Below, piece by piece: positions 3,488 through 64,000 of a stretch of DNA of 64,000 nt. A model generated the notes under the pieces. That model did not search any database and was not told the origin of the DNA. It saw only the letters and a list, made by a program, of their open reading frames with translations. Source of the DNA: Squalus acanthias (lineage: Eukaryota); the NCBI GenBank assembly GCA_030390025.1, contig CM059431.1, positions 140,866,001-140,930,000 of the forward strand. Reading direction: 5' to 3'. Position 1 is the stretch's first letter. Every line of letters begins with the position of its first letter. Position numbers and translations under genes: made by a program.

Positions 3488-4150
3488 TTGTTTGCCGCAC
3501 ACATTGGCTGATTCAGTTCCAGTTACTGAACTCGGGAACCTGGCACTAATGGGTGTTAACAACCTGATCAAGGCCCAGACTGTTACTCATTAACTCAAGA
3601 CTATTTGCTGGAGATTGTAATCAGCGATCTTTGTCCATTGTCGTCTCTGCCCTTCTCGGGTCCGATAATAAATAGGATTTAAGGTGAATAATCATAACTT
3701 ATTGAGGATCTGAAGCTGATTCACGCTACAGGACACGGTTTCACTGCGGGGTCTTCTGAACCGCAGATGGACGAGCTGTGGGGAAATGTAGTCATTGTTA
3801 CCACACAGAGCATTAATGACTTTGGTTAAATGGTCAGCAATTCATCAGAACAATTCAAACTGAATGCAACCTTGTGTGATTCTTATCGAGCCCCGCACCA
3901 GAGATCAGGGCGGGGAGGGATTGTAATGATCAGGTTGAAGGTGGTGTTTATGAACGTGATGTGTAACTGATCTTTACCCAGGGTGTGTTCATTAACCTGC
4001 AGAACTTCCAACGTTAACTTACCCGGACTCTCTGGACCAGAATCGGGAGCCGCAGCACAAGGTAAGGGCAGGAATATACTGAGCACAATTATTTTCATTT
4101 AATGTACAGAAATTGCATTTTCTTTGAGTAGTTGTTGAAAGACAGTGACA
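3488..4150 (-). pseudogene. Copy B of the duplicated cassette
   Basis: Diverged direct repeat of 36-1000; donor at plus-strand CTTAC 4018-4022; hydrophobic exon frameshifted relative to copy A. Confidence 0.4.
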
Positions 4151-4328
4151 AATTAACAGACCAATAATGAGCAGGTAATAACGGATGCATTTTCAGCAAT
4201 TGATTTACTGGGAGTTGCCTCAGTTAACGGAATGAAACTTCGACCTGCAATTTCGCTCTAAAATTCTGCTGCTGTACATAGTATTCCAGTTTATATATCG
4301 TTTATTATACGCTTAGGAACAAAGAGTC

Positions 4329-4511
4329 TGTGGTAACACTTTTCAGCTTCCTGTATGACATCACTTCCTGTAATCAGTCCAGGATAAATACTGGACTGAT
4401 CAGTTAGCTCTGGAAGAGGCATAGGGTAAGACCTCTTTTGTATGCAGCACCGTTTTAAGTTGATTAAAGCTTACATTAAGTTTACCACGCGTAAGGCTCA
4501 TTCTTACGACA
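4329..4511 (+). repeat. 5' LTR (~183 bp) of Gypsy element A
   Basis: Starts TGT, ends TTACGACA; TATA-like GATAAATA 4383-4390, ATTAAA 4463-4468; 3' portion resembles the LTR at 62984-63198. The 5' boundary cannot be confirmed without a second LTR. Confidence 0.75.
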
Positions 4512-7500
4512 ATTTAATCAACTTTTGAAAAACTTCGCACTCAAACTTTTTGGACGAACTCGGAGCTAAGGATCCAGGGAATCACCCATCATGGAAAACA
4601 TCCTTAAACCATCGCGTCTTGACTTGGACCCAAACACCCCAGCAGCCGGTAAGGTGTGGAAACACTGGTATCGCACGTTTGAGAATTTTCTTGAGTATTG
4701 CAAAGCGGATGATAACTCAAAGTTGCGGATACTCATCAACTGTGTCACCCCGAATGTATTTCAGTATGTGGAAGACTGGGACAGTTATGAGGAGGCAATT
4801 CAGACGCTTAAGAGACTATATACTAAGACACCGAATGAGGTCTATGCTAGACATCTACTAGCTACAGCCCAACAAGGGCCGGAGGAATCCATTGATAAAT
4901 TCCTCCAAGAGCTTCGCAGACTTAGTATGGACTGTAACTTTCGGGCAGCCTCAGCTGAGCTATACCGCGAAGAAATGATCCGTGATGCGTTCATCTGCGG
5001 GCTTGCCTCCCCATTTATACGCCAGCGTCTACTGGAAAGTAAGACACTTGAGCTGCAGAGAGCTTATGACCTGGCTTGCTCTCTAGATCTAGCAAAACGA
5101 AATGCAGACCTTTTTACAGTGCCCAGACCTCGGTCTGCTGCCTTAACTACAGTCAGGCAATTTAAGAGGCCACAGGTGAACTCTATTAGGGAGGACTTTA
5201 TCCCTGACGATCGATCTGATGACTTCACCGATGAAGAGGATGATGACCCCACTGTGGCAGCCTCTTGGCAATCTAAGAAATGCTTTTTTTGTGGGGATGA
5301 GTTTCACCCTCGGAGATTCTGCCCTGCTCGCAATGCGTTTTGCAGTCATTGCAACAAAAAGGGTCATTTTGTAAAGGTTTGCCTATCAAGAGCCTCTACG
5401 AGGGCTTATCAAGCTAAGTCCTACCGAACTGCCCCAGTAAGGGCCTATCAGGATGTTCCAACTAAAAACTATCGTGCTTCCTCTCGGGTTTTTTCTCGAA
5501 GAAACACACCTAGAATTTCAGCCACTCTTTGTGCAACGACACCAATTACAGCTGCTTGTCCTCAGAATCTATTCCATGCAGCTACAAAAGCATCAATTAA
5601 GGGACATACTTTAGATGCCTTAATTGACTCAGGTAGCACTGATAGTTTCATTAGGGAACAGACTGTTGCACAGTTAAAGCTACATGTTTTTCCATCGGAC
5701 CAGGCAGTTGCGATGGCTCAGTCATCACTTAATACCAGAATTTCTGGCTTCTGTGTAGTTGAAATAATGCTTAAAGGTCACAGGTATCCCTCCACCCGGC
5801 TTTCGGTGCTCAAGGACTTATGTAGTGATCTTATCTTAGGGCTGGATTTTCAAAAGCAGCATAAGAAGCTTACCATTGAGTTCGGCGGATCCAAACCTGA
5901 ACTCACTATTTCTAATATACGACCTCGATTACCGTTCTGTGCCTTGTCAGCAGCTTCACTGGATGAACCCTCACTGTTTGCCAGTATCCCTCCTCGATGC
6001 AAACCGATTATAACAAAGTCACGCCGTTTCAGTCAGGAAGACCAGTCTTTTATTGCGGCTGAGATTTCTCGGCTTTTAGCAGAGGATATCATCGAGCCTT
6101 GTTCGTCGCCATGGCGCGCCCAGGTCGTTATTGTTAAGAACCCTCTACAACCTCACAAGAAACGGCTGTGCATTGACTATTCACAGACCATCAATCAGTA
6201 TACGGACTTGGACGCATACCCATTGCCGCGCATCGATGATATGGTTAATAAATTGGCTGAGTACACGGTGTTCTCGACTTATGATCTGAAAAGCGCCTAT
6301 CATCAGGTACCCTTGAAGGTCTCAGACAAGCAGTATACAGCCTTTGAAGCCAATGGGCGGCTGTATCAATTTCGTCGCCTCCCCTTTGGGGTCACTAATG
6401 GAGTGGCTGTCTTCCAGCGAGCAATGGATGACCTGGTCAAACAGGAAGACTTGAAGGATACGTTTCCTTATCTGGACAATATTACTGTCGCAGGTCGCAA
6501 TCAGCAGGAACATGACGCCAATCTCCAACGATTTTGGGATGCACTCCAGCACCGTAATTTGACATTGAATGCGGCTAAATCCATTGAGTCACAACCAACT
6601 ATCAACATCCTTGGCTATTGTGTGGGCAATGGCATCATTAAACCTGACCCTGAAAGGCTTCGCCCACTCCAAGAACTCCCGCCACCTAAGAATCCGGCCT
6701 CCTTGCGCCGGGCCCTCGGCCTGTTTGCATACTATGCGAAATGGATTCCTAACTTCTCGGACCGAATCCAACCTCTACTGAAGGCCAGCACATTCCCACT
6801 AGACACAACGGCTGTTGCAGCCTTTAACCTCCTGAAAAAGCAGTTGGAGAAAGCGGCTCTTCACTCCATCGATGAGAGTCTTCCTTTCGTGGTTGAGTGT
6901 GATGCCTCGGAGGTGGCAATCTCAGCCACTCTGAATCAGGAAGGTCGTCCGGTGGCATTTTTGTCCAGGACTTTTCAAGGGGCTGAGCTACATTATCCTC
7001 CAGTCGAGAAAGAAGCTACAGCCATCATAGAGGCAGTACGGAAGTGGAGTCATCTCCTGGCTCGCCAGCACTTTACCTTAATCACGGACCAGCGATCGGT
7101 CGCCTTCATGCTCGATAATCGAAAACGGACCAAAATTAAAAATAATAAAATCCAGCTTTGGCGGCTGGAATTGGCCTCTTTTGGTTACACCATCCACTAT
7201 CGACCTGGCAAGGAGAATGTGGCTCCGGATACCCTCACACGAGCATTCTGCTCCGCCATGGCACCCTCTACGCTCGTAGACATCCATGATGGGTTGTGTC
7301 ATCCAGGCGTTACTCGCATGCTGCACTTCGTGCGGTCCCGAAATCTCCCATTCTCTACCGGGGATGTAAAGAAGATGTGCTCGGACTGCAGAGTCTGTGC
7401 GGAATTGAAACCTCGGTTTTTCCGCCCCTCGGGTGGTATACTCATACATGCGACCCAGCCAATGCAAAGGCTTAGCATCGATTTTAAGGGGCCGTTGCCC

Positions 7501-8520
7501 TCTTCGACTCGCAACACTTATCTATTAACAATGGTTGATGAGTATTCTCGTTTTCCGTTTGCCTTTCCCTGCCCCAATATGCTGACAACCACGGTTATCA
7601 GCTGCCTTGAACAGGTATTTGCTTTCTGTGGCATGGCATCCTATGTTCATTCAGATCGGGGCCCTTCTTTTATGTCGGGAGAACTCAAGGCCTATCTCTC
7701 GGAACGGGGTATTGCTGCCAGCAAAACGACGCCTTATCATCCGGTTGGGAATGGGCAAGTCGAGCGTTTTAACGCTATCATCTGGAATGCGGTACGTCTG
7801 GCTTTGAGATCTCGGGGCCTACCCAACCAGCAATGGGAAGCAGTACTTCCAGACGCATTACACTCCACACGGTCCCTCCTTTCGACCGCCACAAATACGA
7901 CGCCTCATGAACGGTTCTTCCGATTTCAGCGTCGCTCATCCTATGGGACATCTCTCCCGTCGTGGCTGACTACACCGGGACCAGTGCTACTCCGAAGATA
8001 TGTCCGGGCGTCTAAGAATGACCCCCTGGTAGATGAGGTTGAGCTCACTGACGTCAACCCTACCTACGCCTATATTCGGTATCCTGACGGTCGGGAATCT
8101 ACCGTGTCATTGCGGGATCTGGCTCCCTGCCCGCCGAAACATAGAGGGACACCAGGGGATGATATTGTACCAGGCACATCTCTGGGCTTGCCAGGTGCCT
8201 CTCATCATGATCGGGATCTAACGCCGGCTGGTACCTCACTCCAGCGTGCCGACCTGGGGCAGACTGACTATGAGCCCGTCGGGGCTCGCACGCGCAGCCA
8301 CGATCAACCCTGTACCGTACGCTCAGAAACGGATCTGTCACAGCCCTGCCCGACACCCATTCGGGTACCAGTACATGGTCAGGATCGTTCTGACCCCTCA
8401 CAGAGCGGGCTGGAGCACTCGGACTCTGGTCCATGGCCCGCAGCGGGTAAACGGGCTAGGGGCCCTCTACCGCTACGAGAACCCAAACGGGTGCGGCTCT
8501 CCCTAGAGTCAGTGATCGCT
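4329..8520 (+). mobile_element. Gypsy (Ty3) LTR retrotransposon: 5' LTR plus internal region, 3' LTR absent
   Basis: TG...CA LTR followed by a single gag-PR-RT-RH-IN ORF; sequence switches to an antisense CR1 3' tail at ~8521. Confidence 0.95.
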
Positions 8521-21092: not shown

Positions 21093-24000
21093 GAGCAGTA
21101 CAGAGGGAGTGCGATACTGAGAAAGTGCTGCATTGTCGGAGGGGCCGTACTGAGGTCGAACCTCACTGTTGGAGTGGCTGCAGCACTGTAGAAGTAGTAC
21201 TGCTGAGGAAGCGCTCCACTGTCGAAGGGGCAGTATTGATGAAACGCTGCAATGATGGTTGGGCAGTACTGAGGGACTGCTGCACTGTTGGAGGGGGAGC
21301 ACTAAGGGGGTACCACACTGTCGGAGGGGCTGTATTGATGAAATGCTGCAATGATGGTTGGGCAGTACTGAGTGATTGCTGCACTGTTGGAGGGGCAGCA
21401 CTAAGGGAGTGAAACACTTTCGGAGGGGCTGTATGGTGAGAGTCCTTAACTGAAGAAGGCACAGTACTGAGGAAGTGCTGAATTGTCGGAGCTGCAGTAC
21501 TGAGCGAATGTTGCACTGTCAATGGGACAGCACTGAAAGAGAGCTGCCCTGTCGGCGGGGCAGTACTGAGGGAATGCTGCACTATCGGTGCGTCAGTAAT
21601 GATAGACCGCTGTATTGTCGGACGGGCAGTAGCAAGGGAGTGCTGTACTGTCAAAAGGGCAGTAGTGAGCGAGTGTTGTACTGTCGGAGGACAGAACTGA
21701 GGGAGTTCGGCACTGGCGGAAGGGAGGTACTGTGGGAGTGCTGCACTGTCGAAGTTCAGTACTGAGGGAGACCTGTACTGTCGGAGGCGTAGCACTAAAG
21801 GAATGCAGCACTGTCACACAGGCAGTACTGAGAGACTGCTTCAATGTCGGATGGTTCGTACTGACAGACCGCTGCAAAGACGAAGGAGCACTACTGAGGG
21901 GTGTCACACTGCCGGAAAGCCAGTACTGAGAGAGTGCACAGCTGATGTAGGACAGTCCTGGGTGTGTGCTCTACTGTCGGAGTCTACACTTTCGCAGGGC
22001 AGCATTGGTGAGTGCTGCATTGCAGGTTGGGCAGTACAGTGGGACTGCTGCGCTGTCCTAGGCGCTCGATTGAGCGACTGCTGCACGATTGGAGGTTAGT
22101 AATTAGGGACTGACGTACTGTCGGGTACAGTACTGAGCGATCGTTGCACTGTGGGAGCGGCAGTTAATTTAGTTTATTGGTTCCTGGGATGTGGGCGTCA
22201 CTGGCAATGCCAGCATTTATTGCCCATCCCCAATTGCCCTTGAGAAAGTGAGCCGCCTTCTTGAACCGCTGCAGGGCAGGTATTCCCACAGTACGAACTG
22301 TGTCGTTTCAATTTTGTACAACTGAGTGGCTTGGCCATTTCAGAGTCAACAATATTGCGGTGGGCCTGGAGTCACATATAGGCCAGACTGGGTAAGGATG
22401 GCAGATTTCCTTTGCTAAAGGACATTAGTGAACCAGATGGATTTTTACAACAATCCGGTAGTTTCATGATCAACATTTTTTTTAAAATCCTGAATATTTA
22501 ATTAACTGAATTTAAATTTCCCCAGCTGCCTCTGGTGGTATTTGAACTCACGTCTAATCATATAATCATTAGCCCTGGCCTGCTGGATTACTAATTCAGT
22601 AACATAATCACGATGCTACCGTACACTCGTTGCGAGAGCCACGCACCACCGGAGGTGCAATATTGAGGGGGCGCTGCAGCGTCGGAGGGGTAGTACTGAG
22701 GGAGCGCAGTATCTTTGGCGAGTCAGTGCTTAGAGAGTGCGGCTGCATCAGCGAGCCAGGACTGAAGAGCGCAGGCAGGTGTAGGGCAGTCCTGGGTGTC
22801 TGCCGTACTCTAGCAGTGTCATTACTGAGGGAGTGCTGCACTGTCAGAGGGTCAGTGCTGTGTGATTCGTGCACTGTCAGCGTGTCAGTGCAGAGTGATT
22901 GCAGCACTGTCAGAGGGTCAGTGCTGAGTGATTGCTGCACTGTCAGAGGGTCAGTGCTGAGTGATTCCTGCACTGTCAGAGGGTCGGTGCTGAGTGATTC
23001 CTGCACTGTCAGAGGGTCAGTGCTGAGTGATTGCTGTATTGTCAGAGGGTCAGTGCTGAGTGATTCCTGCACTGTCAGAGGGTCAGTGCTGTGTGATTGC
23101 TGCACTGTCAGAGGGTCAATGCTGAGTGATTGTTGCACTGTCAGAGGGTAAGTGCTGAGTGATTCATGCACTGTCAGAGGGTCAGTGCTGAGTGATTCCT
23201 GCACTGTCAGAGGGTCAGTGCTGTGTAATTGCTGCACTGTCAGACGGTCAATGCTGAGTGATTGCTGCACTGTCAGAGGGTCAATGCTGTGTGATTGCTG
23301 CACTGTCAGAGGGTCAATGCTGACTGATTGCTGCACTGTCAGAGGGTCAGTGCTGAGTGATTCCAGCACTGTCAGAGGGTCAGTGCTGAGTGATTCCTGC
23401 ACTGTCAGAGGGTCAGTGCTGAGTGAGTGCTGCACTGTCACAGGGTCAGTGCTGAGTGAGTGCTGCACTGTCAGAGGGTCAGTGCTGAGTGATTGCTGCT
23501 CTGTCAGAGGGTCAGTGCTGAGTGATTGCTGCACTGTCAGAGGGTAAGTGCTAAGTGATTGCTGCACAGTCAGAGGGTCAGTGCTGAGTGATTGCTGCAC
23601 TGTCAGAGGGTCAGTGCTGTGTAATTGCTGCACTGTCAGACGGTCAATGCTGAGTGATTGCTGCACTGTCAGAGGGTCAATGCTGTGTGATTGCTGCACT
23701 GTCAGATGGTCAATGCTGACTGATTGCTGCACTGTCAGAGGGTCAGTGCTGAGTGATTCCTGCACTGTCAGAGGGTCAGTGCTGAGTGATTCCTGCACTG
23801 TCAGAGGGTCAGTGCTGAGTGAGTGCTGCACTGTCAGAGGGTCAGTGCTGAGTGATTGCTGCTCTGTTAGAGGGTCAGTGCTGCGTGATTGCTGCACTGT
23901 CAGAGGGTCAGTGCCGAGTGATTGCTGCGCTGTCAGAGGGTCAGTGCTGAGTGATTCCTGCACTGTCAGAGGGTCAGTGCTGTGTGATTCCTGCACTGTG

Positions 24001-62100: not shown

Positions 62101-62983
62101 AAAAACTGGCGCCCGGTCTCCCTCCTCAGCACGGACTATAAAATTTTTGCCAGGGCCATGTCTGCCCGCCTCGGCACCGTGCTGGCCCACATGATCCACC
62201 CCAACCAGTCCTACACGGTCCCGGGCCGGACAATCCACGACCACATCCATCTGGTCTGGGACCTGTTCCACCTTTCCCAGAGGGCTGGTCTGTCGGTCGC
62301 CTTCCTTTCCCTGGATCAGGAGAAGGCGTTTGACAGGTTGTATCACGAGTATCTTTTCGGAACTCTGCGCGCATTCGGGTTTGGGACACATTTTGTCGCC
62401 CGGATCCGACTTCTGTACGCAGCCGCAGAGTGTCTGATTAAAGTTAACGGGTCTTTGACGGCGTCCCATCGCTTTGGGAGGGGGGTTCGTCAGGGATGCC
62501 CCATGTCCGGTCAGTTATACGCCGTTTGCGTGGAGCCTTTCCTGCGCTTCTTGCGGAAGAGGTTGTCGGGACTGGCTCTGCAAGGGCTGGCCATGGAGGC
62601 CGTCCTCTCGGCTTACGCTGATGATGTGCTCCTCATGGTCACGGATCCCGTCGACTTGTGGAAGATGCAAGAATGCCAGCAGGTTTACTCGGACGCATCC
62701 TCCGCCAGGATCAACAGGGAGAAATGTTCTGGACTCCTGGTGGGCCAGTGGCGGGTGGACTCCCTGCCGGAGGAGTTCAGGCCCTTCGCCTGGAGCACAA
62801 CGCACCTCCTCTACTTGGGAGTCTACCTCGGCCCTGCCGAGGATACCTGGCCGGTGAACTGGCAAGAGCTGGAGGCCAAAGTCACCGCTCACCTAGGACG
62901 CTGGACGGGCTTGCTCCGAGTGTTGTCCTACAGGGGTCGAGCGCTGGTCATAAACCAGCTGATGGCCGCCATGTTGTGGTACC

Positions 62984-63198
62984 TGTCATAAATCGCAAGT
63001 AACAACTCAGGAAGTACTTCTGGGCGGCCAGCTGGGGCGCCGTCCAGGGAGTATAAATACTCAGGCATGGGCCCACCTTGGGCAGAGACAATCTGGAAAC
63101 AGGAAGCTAGTGACTGCTAACTGGACCTCCATGTTTTGTTACAAGTTGATTAAAGCCTTGCTTTATGTTCAAGTGCGTAGTGAGTCTTTATTACGTCA
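62984..63198 (+). repeat. 5' LTR (215 bp) of Gypsy element B
   Basis: TGT start fixed by the Tx1 breakpoint; TATAAATA 63052-63059; ATTAAA 63149-63154; ends TTACGTCA. Confidence 0.85.
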
Positions 63199-63298
63199 AT
63201 TTAATCAACTTGATATCGTCTCCACGCTTTGGGTGATTCGGAACAACCAGCTGCAACTCGAACCACAGAAGGGAACTAGGGCAAGAAACTGATCCATC

Positions 63299-64000
63299 AT
63301 GGAAAAACTCCTTAGACCCGCTCGTCTCGACCTGGACCCGAATGCACCTGCGGCAGCAAAGGTATGGAAGCATTGGTTTCGTACCTTTAGCAACTTTCTT
63401 GAAGAATGTGGGGCGGATGTCCCTAATAAGTTACGAATGCTTATCAACTACGTGTCTCCTCATGTGTATGATTATATTGAGGACTGTATAGTCTATGACA
63501 CTGCTATCGAAATCTTACAGCAGCTATATGTCAAGTCCCCAAATGAAATATTTGCTCGACACCTACTGGCCACAACTCGGCAGCAGCCTGGGGAATCACT
63601 CGATGAATTTCTCCAGAAACATCGCAGGCTCAGCAAGGATTGTAACCTTAAAGCAGTTACAGCTGAACAGTATCAAGAGGAACTAATCCGCGATTCCTTT
63701 ATCAATGGGATCGCGTCCCCTTTTATACGTCAGCGCCTGCTGGAAAATAAAACCCTCAATTTACGGGCTGCTTATGACCAGGCGTGTTCCTTGGACTTGG
63801 CCAAGAAAAATGCAGACACTTATCTCCCACCACGTGCACGGGCGGCGGCTATCTCCTTTAATGAGTCTTTCGGTAGGTCTCGGGCGGATGCCCCCACTGA
63901 TGTTGACTCTACTCTAACGGACGACGACCCTACCCTAGAGGCCTTCGCTGATGACGACCCCGCCCTAGCAGCATCCTGGCAATCAGGAAGAAAGTGTTTC
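63299..64000 (+). CDS. Gypsy gag N-terminus, open to window end (absent from the ORF track)
   Basis: MEKLLRPARLDLDPNAPAAAKVWKHWFRTF...SPFIRQRLLE...AASWQSGRKCF, collinear with the 4591 ORF; no stop in 234 codons. Confidence 0.92.
   Translation, partial: MEKLLRPARLDLDPNAPAAAKVWKHWFRTFSNFLEECGADVPNKLRMLINYVSPHVYDYIEDCIVYDTAIEILQQLYVKSPNEIFARHLLATTRQQPGESLDEFLQKHRRLSKDCNLKAVTAEQYQEELIRDSFINGIASPFIRQRLLENKTLNLRAAYDQACSLDLAKKNADTYLPPRARAAAISFNESFGRSRADAPTDVDSTLTDDDPTLEAFADDDPALAASWQSGRKCF

Follow-up and report, generated by a model that had tools for sequence, protein, structure and literature searches.

A Ty3/Gypsy element with a self-complementary site beside its long terminal repeat

Within a 64,000-nucleotide (nt) stretch of the Squalus acanthias genome (hereafter the window; contig CM059431.1 of GenBank assembly GCA_030390025.1, positions 140,866,001 to 140,930,000 of the forward strand, with window position 1 being its first letter) we investigated two retrotransposons with long terminal repeats (LTRs), both on the + strand, which belong to a compact clade of animal Ty3/Gypsy elements. 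In both, the candidate primer-binding site (PBS) just past the 5' LTR can pair with a few nucleotides inside that same LTR. We show that this pairing is maintained throughout the clade and argue that its members probably initiate reverse transcription with their own RNA and not with a host transfer RNA (tRNA).

Element 1 begins with an LTR of 183 bp with the form TGT...ACA (4329..4511). Its limits are set by three full-length genomic copies, in which the same 183-bp repeat occurs twice, 4,237 bp apart; moreover, 30 genome copies begin matching at 4319-4329, i.e. within about 10 nt of the LTR start. The LTR contains a TATA-like ATAAATA motif (4384..4390) and, 67-73 nt downstream of it, a 12-nt stretch that we term arm 1 (AAGTTGATTAAA; 4457..4468), the 3' end of which is formed by the hexamer ATTAAA (4463-4468). 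The remaining 43 nt of the LTR (4469..4511) close with the terminal CA (4510-4511), after which come a single spacer A (4512..4512) and arm 2, the candidate PBS (TTTAATCAACTT; 4513..4524). Arm 2 has no TGG and is the exact reverse complement of arm 1, with the pairing extending on neither side of the two 12-mers. Because the repeats of the full-length copies end the LTR at the ACA at 4511, arm 2 lies outside the LTR, and it is missing after the 3' LTR in the flanks of these copies. When the LTR was subjected to dinucleotide shuffling, a 12-mer complement at 0-3 nt past its end was recovered in one of 20,000 shuffles.

Downstream of these features lies a gag-pol frame (4591..8504) coding for two CCHC zinc knuckles and for domains that Pfam models place in the order aspartic protease, reverse transcriptase (RT), ribonuclease H (RNase H) and integrase. 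The window copy is incomplete: its homology to the full copies stops at 8504, and it lacks the last part of the frame as well as a polypurine tract and a 3' LTR, which corrects the picture drawn in a preliminary description of this DNA. The three full-length copies span 4,420 bp with an open gag-pol frame of 1,318 codons, and in each of the three the two LTRs are identical, the target duplication measures 5 bp and a G-rich polypurine tract adjoins the 3' LTR, ending in A before its TG. The presence of the LTRs, the target duplication, the polypurine tract and the protease-RT-RNase H-integrase order identifies element 1 as a member of the Ty3/Gypsy group (Metaviridae). A search for a chromodomain gave no match at E <= 1 in the final 358 residues of a copy without truncation, and none in the window copy. 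In the following particulars the preliminary description stands: it had given the same coordinates for both arms, the terminal CA and the spacer, had noted the exact pairing and the hexamer on which arm 1 ends, and had pointed to a TATA box about 70 nt upstream of that arm, two Gag knuckles and the lack of a chromodomain.

The RT active-site box of element 1 (6469-6480) reads YLDN instead of YxDD. In a set made up of the query and 120 relatives, YxDN occurs in 80 and YxDD in 31, while 10 gave no match to the search expression. In a study of Ty1 the corresponding Asp-to-Asn change is reported to retain polymerase activity in vitro (PMC2148107), and our literature search brought up no description of a clade in which YxDN is natural.

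Element 2, at the far end of the window, represents a separate, diverged family with the same arrangement of arms. Its 5' LTR (62975..63198, with an ambiguous start at either 62975 or 62984) contains a TATA-like motif about 90 nt upstream of a 13-nt arm 1 that likewise ends on ATTAAA (63142..63154); the terminal CA is followed by a spacer A (63199) and by arm 2, again the candidate PBS, which forms 13 bp with 63142-63154 (63200..63212). The start of gag (63299..64000) runs off the window end. The pairing is kept in all 11 copies of this second family that were examined.

Compensatory changes maintain the paired arms across the clade

Protein relatives with 42-68% identity, typically about 1,200 residues in length and encoded on contigs of about 4 kb, were found in crustaceans, nematodes, cnidarians, a ctenophore, a tunicate, insects and a ray. 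Using an alignment of 18 proteins we scanned metagenome contigs and recovered 65 loci (44-70% identity), of which 28 include the start of gag; together with both window elements these provide 30 LTR/gag junctions. The resulting picture is of a compact animal Ty3/Gypsy clade of about 4.4 kb, with LTRs of about 150-230 bp and one gag-pol frame.

Examination of the junctions revealed an inverted repeat, perfect over 9-18 bp, at the same place in 26 of the 30 (24 of the 28 metagenome loci and both window elements). Arm 2 follows the LTR-terminal CA and one further base, and arm 1 ends 24-68 nt upstream, on xTTAAA or AATAAA in all lineages. Of the 23 aligned lineages, 21 have A as the spacer base and the other two T (L048) and G (L062). 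For loci that retain both LTRs, comparison of the two gives an LTR end that agrees with the position of the arm. Perfect inverted repeats of at least 12 bp were present in 22 of the 28 upstream regions, as against one of 560 shuffled ones. The ATG of gag comes at most 5 nt past arm 2 in half of the junctions with the repeat (13/26), and none of the 23 lineages shows TGG among the 12 nt that immediately follow the LTR. The arm cores are diverse, with 15 or more distinct ones across the lineages and only about 5 nt (TTTAA) constant.

We then asked how the arms vary together, a check on family members that the preliminary description had proposed, using 23 distinct aligned sequences and a helix of 16 pairs. 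Standard pairs occupy 91.8% of the cells, compared to 72.3% in shuffles (a level reached by 0 of 500), changes on both sides occur in 12 of the 16 pairs (8.6 in shuffles), and 67 cells show a change on both sides where shuffles predict 18.3; these shuffle statistics are inflated by relatedness, since few sources supplied the 23 sequences. Controls in which the partner is slid by 1-3 columns are free of that inflation, and in them standard pairs drop to 25-49%. Closely related copies can differ by a single compensated pair, as with a G-C in L044 that is a U-A in L041. Likewise, RNAalifold run without a given structure recovered a helix of 13 bp with covariation in nine of its 13 pairs. Thus, the pairing of the arms is maintained by compensatory change across the whole clade, and the proposal that these elements lack a tRNA-type PBS and have in its place a site pairing with their own LTR has held for the family at large.

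Self-priming as the probable role of the paired arms

The 3' end of the LTR is the point at which minus-strand synthesis starts, and hence the primer must anneal directly downstream of it. Given how close the gag ATG comes to arm 2 in 13 of the 26 junctions, no other primer site fits in this interval there. As judged from the aligned sequences, the variable part of the PBS follows the element's own LTR and not a common host RNA. Taking these points with the covariation, we consider it probable that, in the clade to which both window elements belong, the element's RNA itself primes reverse transcription, independently of host tRNA. The mechanism, as we read it, is of a known kind, namely that of Tf1-type elements.

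In the scheme that we propose, a stretch of 12-18 nt from the LTR (4457-4468 in element 1) would fold back in the genomic RNA on the site one base past the LTR (4513-4524). The RNase H of the element would then cut between 4468 and 4469, directly behind the A with which the arm ends, a position that we place by the end of the LTR. The new 3'-OH would be extended from A4512, the predicted first templated base, back to G4469, so that the 43-nt inter-arm remainder and A4512 would serve as template for a minus strong-stop DNA of 44 nt. This DNA would jump to the same short stretch, reaching from the hexamer to the poly(A) site, at the 3' end of the RNA, and copying of the RNA primer during plus-strand synthesis would rewrite the PBS. 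Such rewriting would explain why the arms remain matched in fast-diverging lineages. The cleavage, the priming and the strong-stop length are all steps that we infer by analogy with Tf1. A primer with a defined 3' end at the final A of the hexamer, together with the removal of one base at integration, would fit the fixed geometry, in which arm 1 invariably closes with the hexamer, the spacer is mostly a lone A and the polypurine tract has an A before the TG.

Several observations weigh against this reading. The repeat is missing in four of the 30 junctions, of which two (L046 and L052) have a short upstream region on a permuted contig and two (L073 and L094) look decayed. The relatedness of the 23 sequences, given above, lowers the force of the shuffle comparisons. 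The arm duplex is AU-rich, and 4415-4600 folds no better than shuffled sequences do (z = -0.77). Of the public runs listed as containing the element, none is recorded as RNA, and contigs from runs X1, X2, X4 and X5 look like DNA assemblies, with a 183-nt unitig and empty-site joints. The comparison with host tRNAs is a poor check, as an Rfam genome search together with ARAGORN yielded just seven distinct tRNAs, for Lys-UUU and Cys-GCA only. Finally, an RNA start about 30 nt past the TATA-like motif would give the primer a leader of 40-60 nt, and such an internal-leader geometry would require an additional step.

The same features have to be weighed under other explanations. The inverted repeat could in principle have arisen by chance in AT-rich sequence, since the arms are AT-rich and even the slid controls still pair in a quarter to a half of their cells; its recurrence at one position, the compensatory changes and the rarity of comparable repeats in both shuffle tests together rule out a chance origin, to which we assign a negligible probability. 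The primer might instead be a fragment of a host tRNA or another small host RNA, after the fashion of the half-tRNA primers of copia-type elements, which are known in Ty1/copia lineages (PMC6317226), and our tRNA sample is far from complete. Against this stands the diversity of the arm sequences, each of which matches and changes with its own LTR; the few constant nucleotides would not suffice for a common host primer. The longest match of the PBS to the seven sampled tRNAs is 5 nt, in a sample too small to count as evidence, and the window itself contains no tRNA genes. Overall we regard a host-RNA primer as very improbable. As an observation apart, tRNA genes occur in tandem clusters about 1.78 kb apart in this genome (G000:C2208:413928-426494, C29:13254729-13265435 and others).

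A more serious alternative is that the hairpin is purely regulatory, acting in masking of the 5' poly(A) signal, gating of gag translation, or packaging and dimerisation, while a different primer is used. The poly(A)-signal-like hexamer on which arm 1 ends in every lineage and the frequent closeness of arm 2 to the gag ATG are both what such a hairpin would lead one to see, and covariation demonstrates pairing, not priming. However, a regulatory hairpin need not sit exactly one base past the LTR end, as arm 2 does in every lineage; it leaves the element with no other candidate primer site between LTR and gag; and regulatory and priming roles can coexist. We therefore hold an exclusively regulatory role to be improbable, if less so than a host-derived primer, and favor self-priming.

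Position of the primer in the transcript

Under self-priming, the place of arm 1 in the RNA can be pictured in two ways, between which the evidence is nearly evenly balanced: either arm 1 makes up the first bases of the transcript, the arrangement known from Tf1, or it lies behind a leader of the length given above. Covariation extends past the invariant AG by two columns or more, which shows these bases to be part of the RNA. A leader copied into the plus strand should hinder the second strand transfer, which favors an RNA start near the 5' edge of the arm. The preliminary description placed arm 1 inside the RNA on account of the TATA-like motif; a simple scan for TATA words matched three of the 11 LTRs examined, and only the two families of the window have a motif of this kind 67-90 nt upstream of the arm.

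Judging by its letters, the hexamer is presumably a poly(A) signal, in which case the duplex would hide the copy of that signal near the 5' end. Taking this further, an internal piece of the repeated region (R) that carries the poly(A) signal could serve as self-primer, masking the 5' signal and then priming after a cut in the middle of the RNA. We consider this internal primer possible, yet rather doubtful; no more than about 20 nt of R would then remain for the first strand transfer. If true, it would be a self-priming geometry without a described counterpart among Tf1-type elements, in a Gypsy clade that is animal-wide, non-chromoviral and mostly YxDN.

The minimum-energy fold of the window RNA includes the arm duplex, the loop of which folds into two small hairpins (4469-4481 and 4490-4508). 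Across the clade, a hairpin is predicted at the first base past arm 1, i.e. at the proposed cut site, in 15 of 20 lineages, albeit with weak statistics: the loops fold with a mean z of -0.48, falling below -1 in only seven of the 20, and are thus suggestive at most. The first bases after arm 1 are (G/A)CC in almost all lineages. With respect to the 3' end of the transcript, two pattern searches of the genome gave no matches to polyadenylated retrocopies. The ends of contigs L038 and L039, located 9 and 19 nt past the hexamer, were considered as poly(A) sites and rejected as an artefact, because both overlaps are exactly 127 nt, a word length used by assemblers.

Recent activity of element 1 and neighboring repeats

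The 261 bases around the site are 100% identical at all 40 scored places (among 895 candidates) in the 3.7-Gb genome, the LTR-PBS junction is present in exact form 2,253 times, and one exact context of arm 1 occurs 795 times, mostly paired at 4,237 bp. Given this identity, these counts and the identical LTR pairs, the family of element 1 is very young and abundant, and it has been recently active with its self-complementary site in place.

A few further observations concern the genomic copies of this family. Three LTR-PBS junctions lie on one strand exactly 4,247 bp apart at G000:C1:566512-575027, which suggests a head-to-tail array of elements with common LTRs. The flanks of one full copy (L031:300-458 and 4911-5050) have a sequencing depth 10-100 times that of the element in all four runs; as contigs additionally join these flanks across an empty site, the copy sits inside a more abundant repeat. 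Just past the truncation of the window copy, 8615-9451 matches at 98%, in reverse orientation, a segment beside another element copy (L032:7091-7924), and this stretch is another repeat. Runs under eight organism labels contain 40-97% of the 31-letter words sampled from window 4329-6000, indicating near-identical copies of the element under several species labels, due either to close relationship of these species or to transfer between them.

The window contains other repeats as well. A pair of 186-189 bp with 85% identity, unrelated to the element, lies upstream of element 1 (3907-4092 and 724-911). Tandem arrays with a 33-bp unit occupy 21162-21729 and the region from 22685 onwards; 74 copies of a 300-nt reference were reported, and the second block is 86-88% alike.

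Relationship to known elements and implications

It is a defining point of Tf1 that the primer arm consists of the first bases of its RNA, and to our knowledge bench proof of self-priming exists only for the Tf1-type elements of fission yeast. As in Tf1 and Tf2 of Schizosaccharomyces pombe, Tj1 of S. japonicus and the Tf1/sushi group generally, the elements described here have no tRNA PBS, and the site past the LTR complements their own LTR. The small hairpins predicted in their loop resemble the U5-IR-like stem of Tf1 reportedly described by Lin and Levin in 1998. The conserved helix is 13 bp long, compared with the 11-nt primer of Tf1, directly after which RNase H cuts (PMC7175516, PMC4600332 and PMC5341516). 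In contrast to Tf1/sushi, the present clade is animal-wide and has very short LTRs, a primer arm ending on a poly(A)-like hexamer, a loop of merely 24-68 nt, a PBS that often abuts the gag ATG and an RT box that is mostly YxDN; its lack of a chromodomain means that it fails the hallmark of that group.

In overall architecture element 1 resembles the Mag C-clade, to which SURL and Steamer belong, with respect to its size of 4,420 bp, its frame of 1,318 residues, its 183-bp TGT..ACA LTR and its two knuckles, and the present clade is, like Mag C, widespread in aquatic animals. Published descriptions put Steamer-like/SURL elements at 4.5-5 kb, with a single frame for gag-pol, LTRs that measure 153-219 bp (mean 187) and have TGT...ACA ends, and two zinc knuckles (PMC8905726, PMC11046912); for the LTRs of Mag C they give a mean of 174 bp and the ends TGTNATRT / AYANAACA (PMC3601003). 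Unlike the Mag C-clade, in which Steamer and its neighbor branches (C9 and C10) are described with a tRNA-Leu PBS beginning with TGG directly after the LTR (PMC8905726) and MchSLE1 with a PBS of the tRNA-Asn type and YxDD as its box (PMC11046912), the present clade has no TGG, a self-complementary PBS and a mostly YxDN RT box. As our comparison covers architecture and published descriptions, not a tree, we file it under neither Tf1/sushi nor Mag C.

Self-priming has been predicted for the Tf1/sushi group, Tcn1-like chromoviruses and TAR copia elements (PMC6317226, with a list in PMC6934838). The Tcn1-like chromoviruses and the plant TAR elements (Ty1/copia) are comparable to the present case, being outside fission yeast with self-priming deduced from sequence, but belong to a different superfamily or clade with different hosts; the available part of PMC6317226 contains no covariation analysis for them. 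For Mag-like or other non-chromoviral animal Gypsy elements we found no report of self-priming in the full-text literature, a search that did not cover key older literature.

The significance of these observations lies in a self-priming signature with unusually clear covariation in a different, chromodomain-less clade of animals. The compact R-U5-PBS module of about 70 nt and the many young copies make the definition of the self-primer's ends directly testable. If the interpretation is true, annotation pipelines that demand a tRNA PBS would mis-score such elements. Fragments from the 3' ends of tRNAs have been described as a host defence against tRNA primer sites (PMC7472051). Host defences directed at such sites would, if these elements are indeed self-primed, miss them, and independence from tRNA primers would have arisen or persisted far more widely among animal Gypsy elements than has been assumed.

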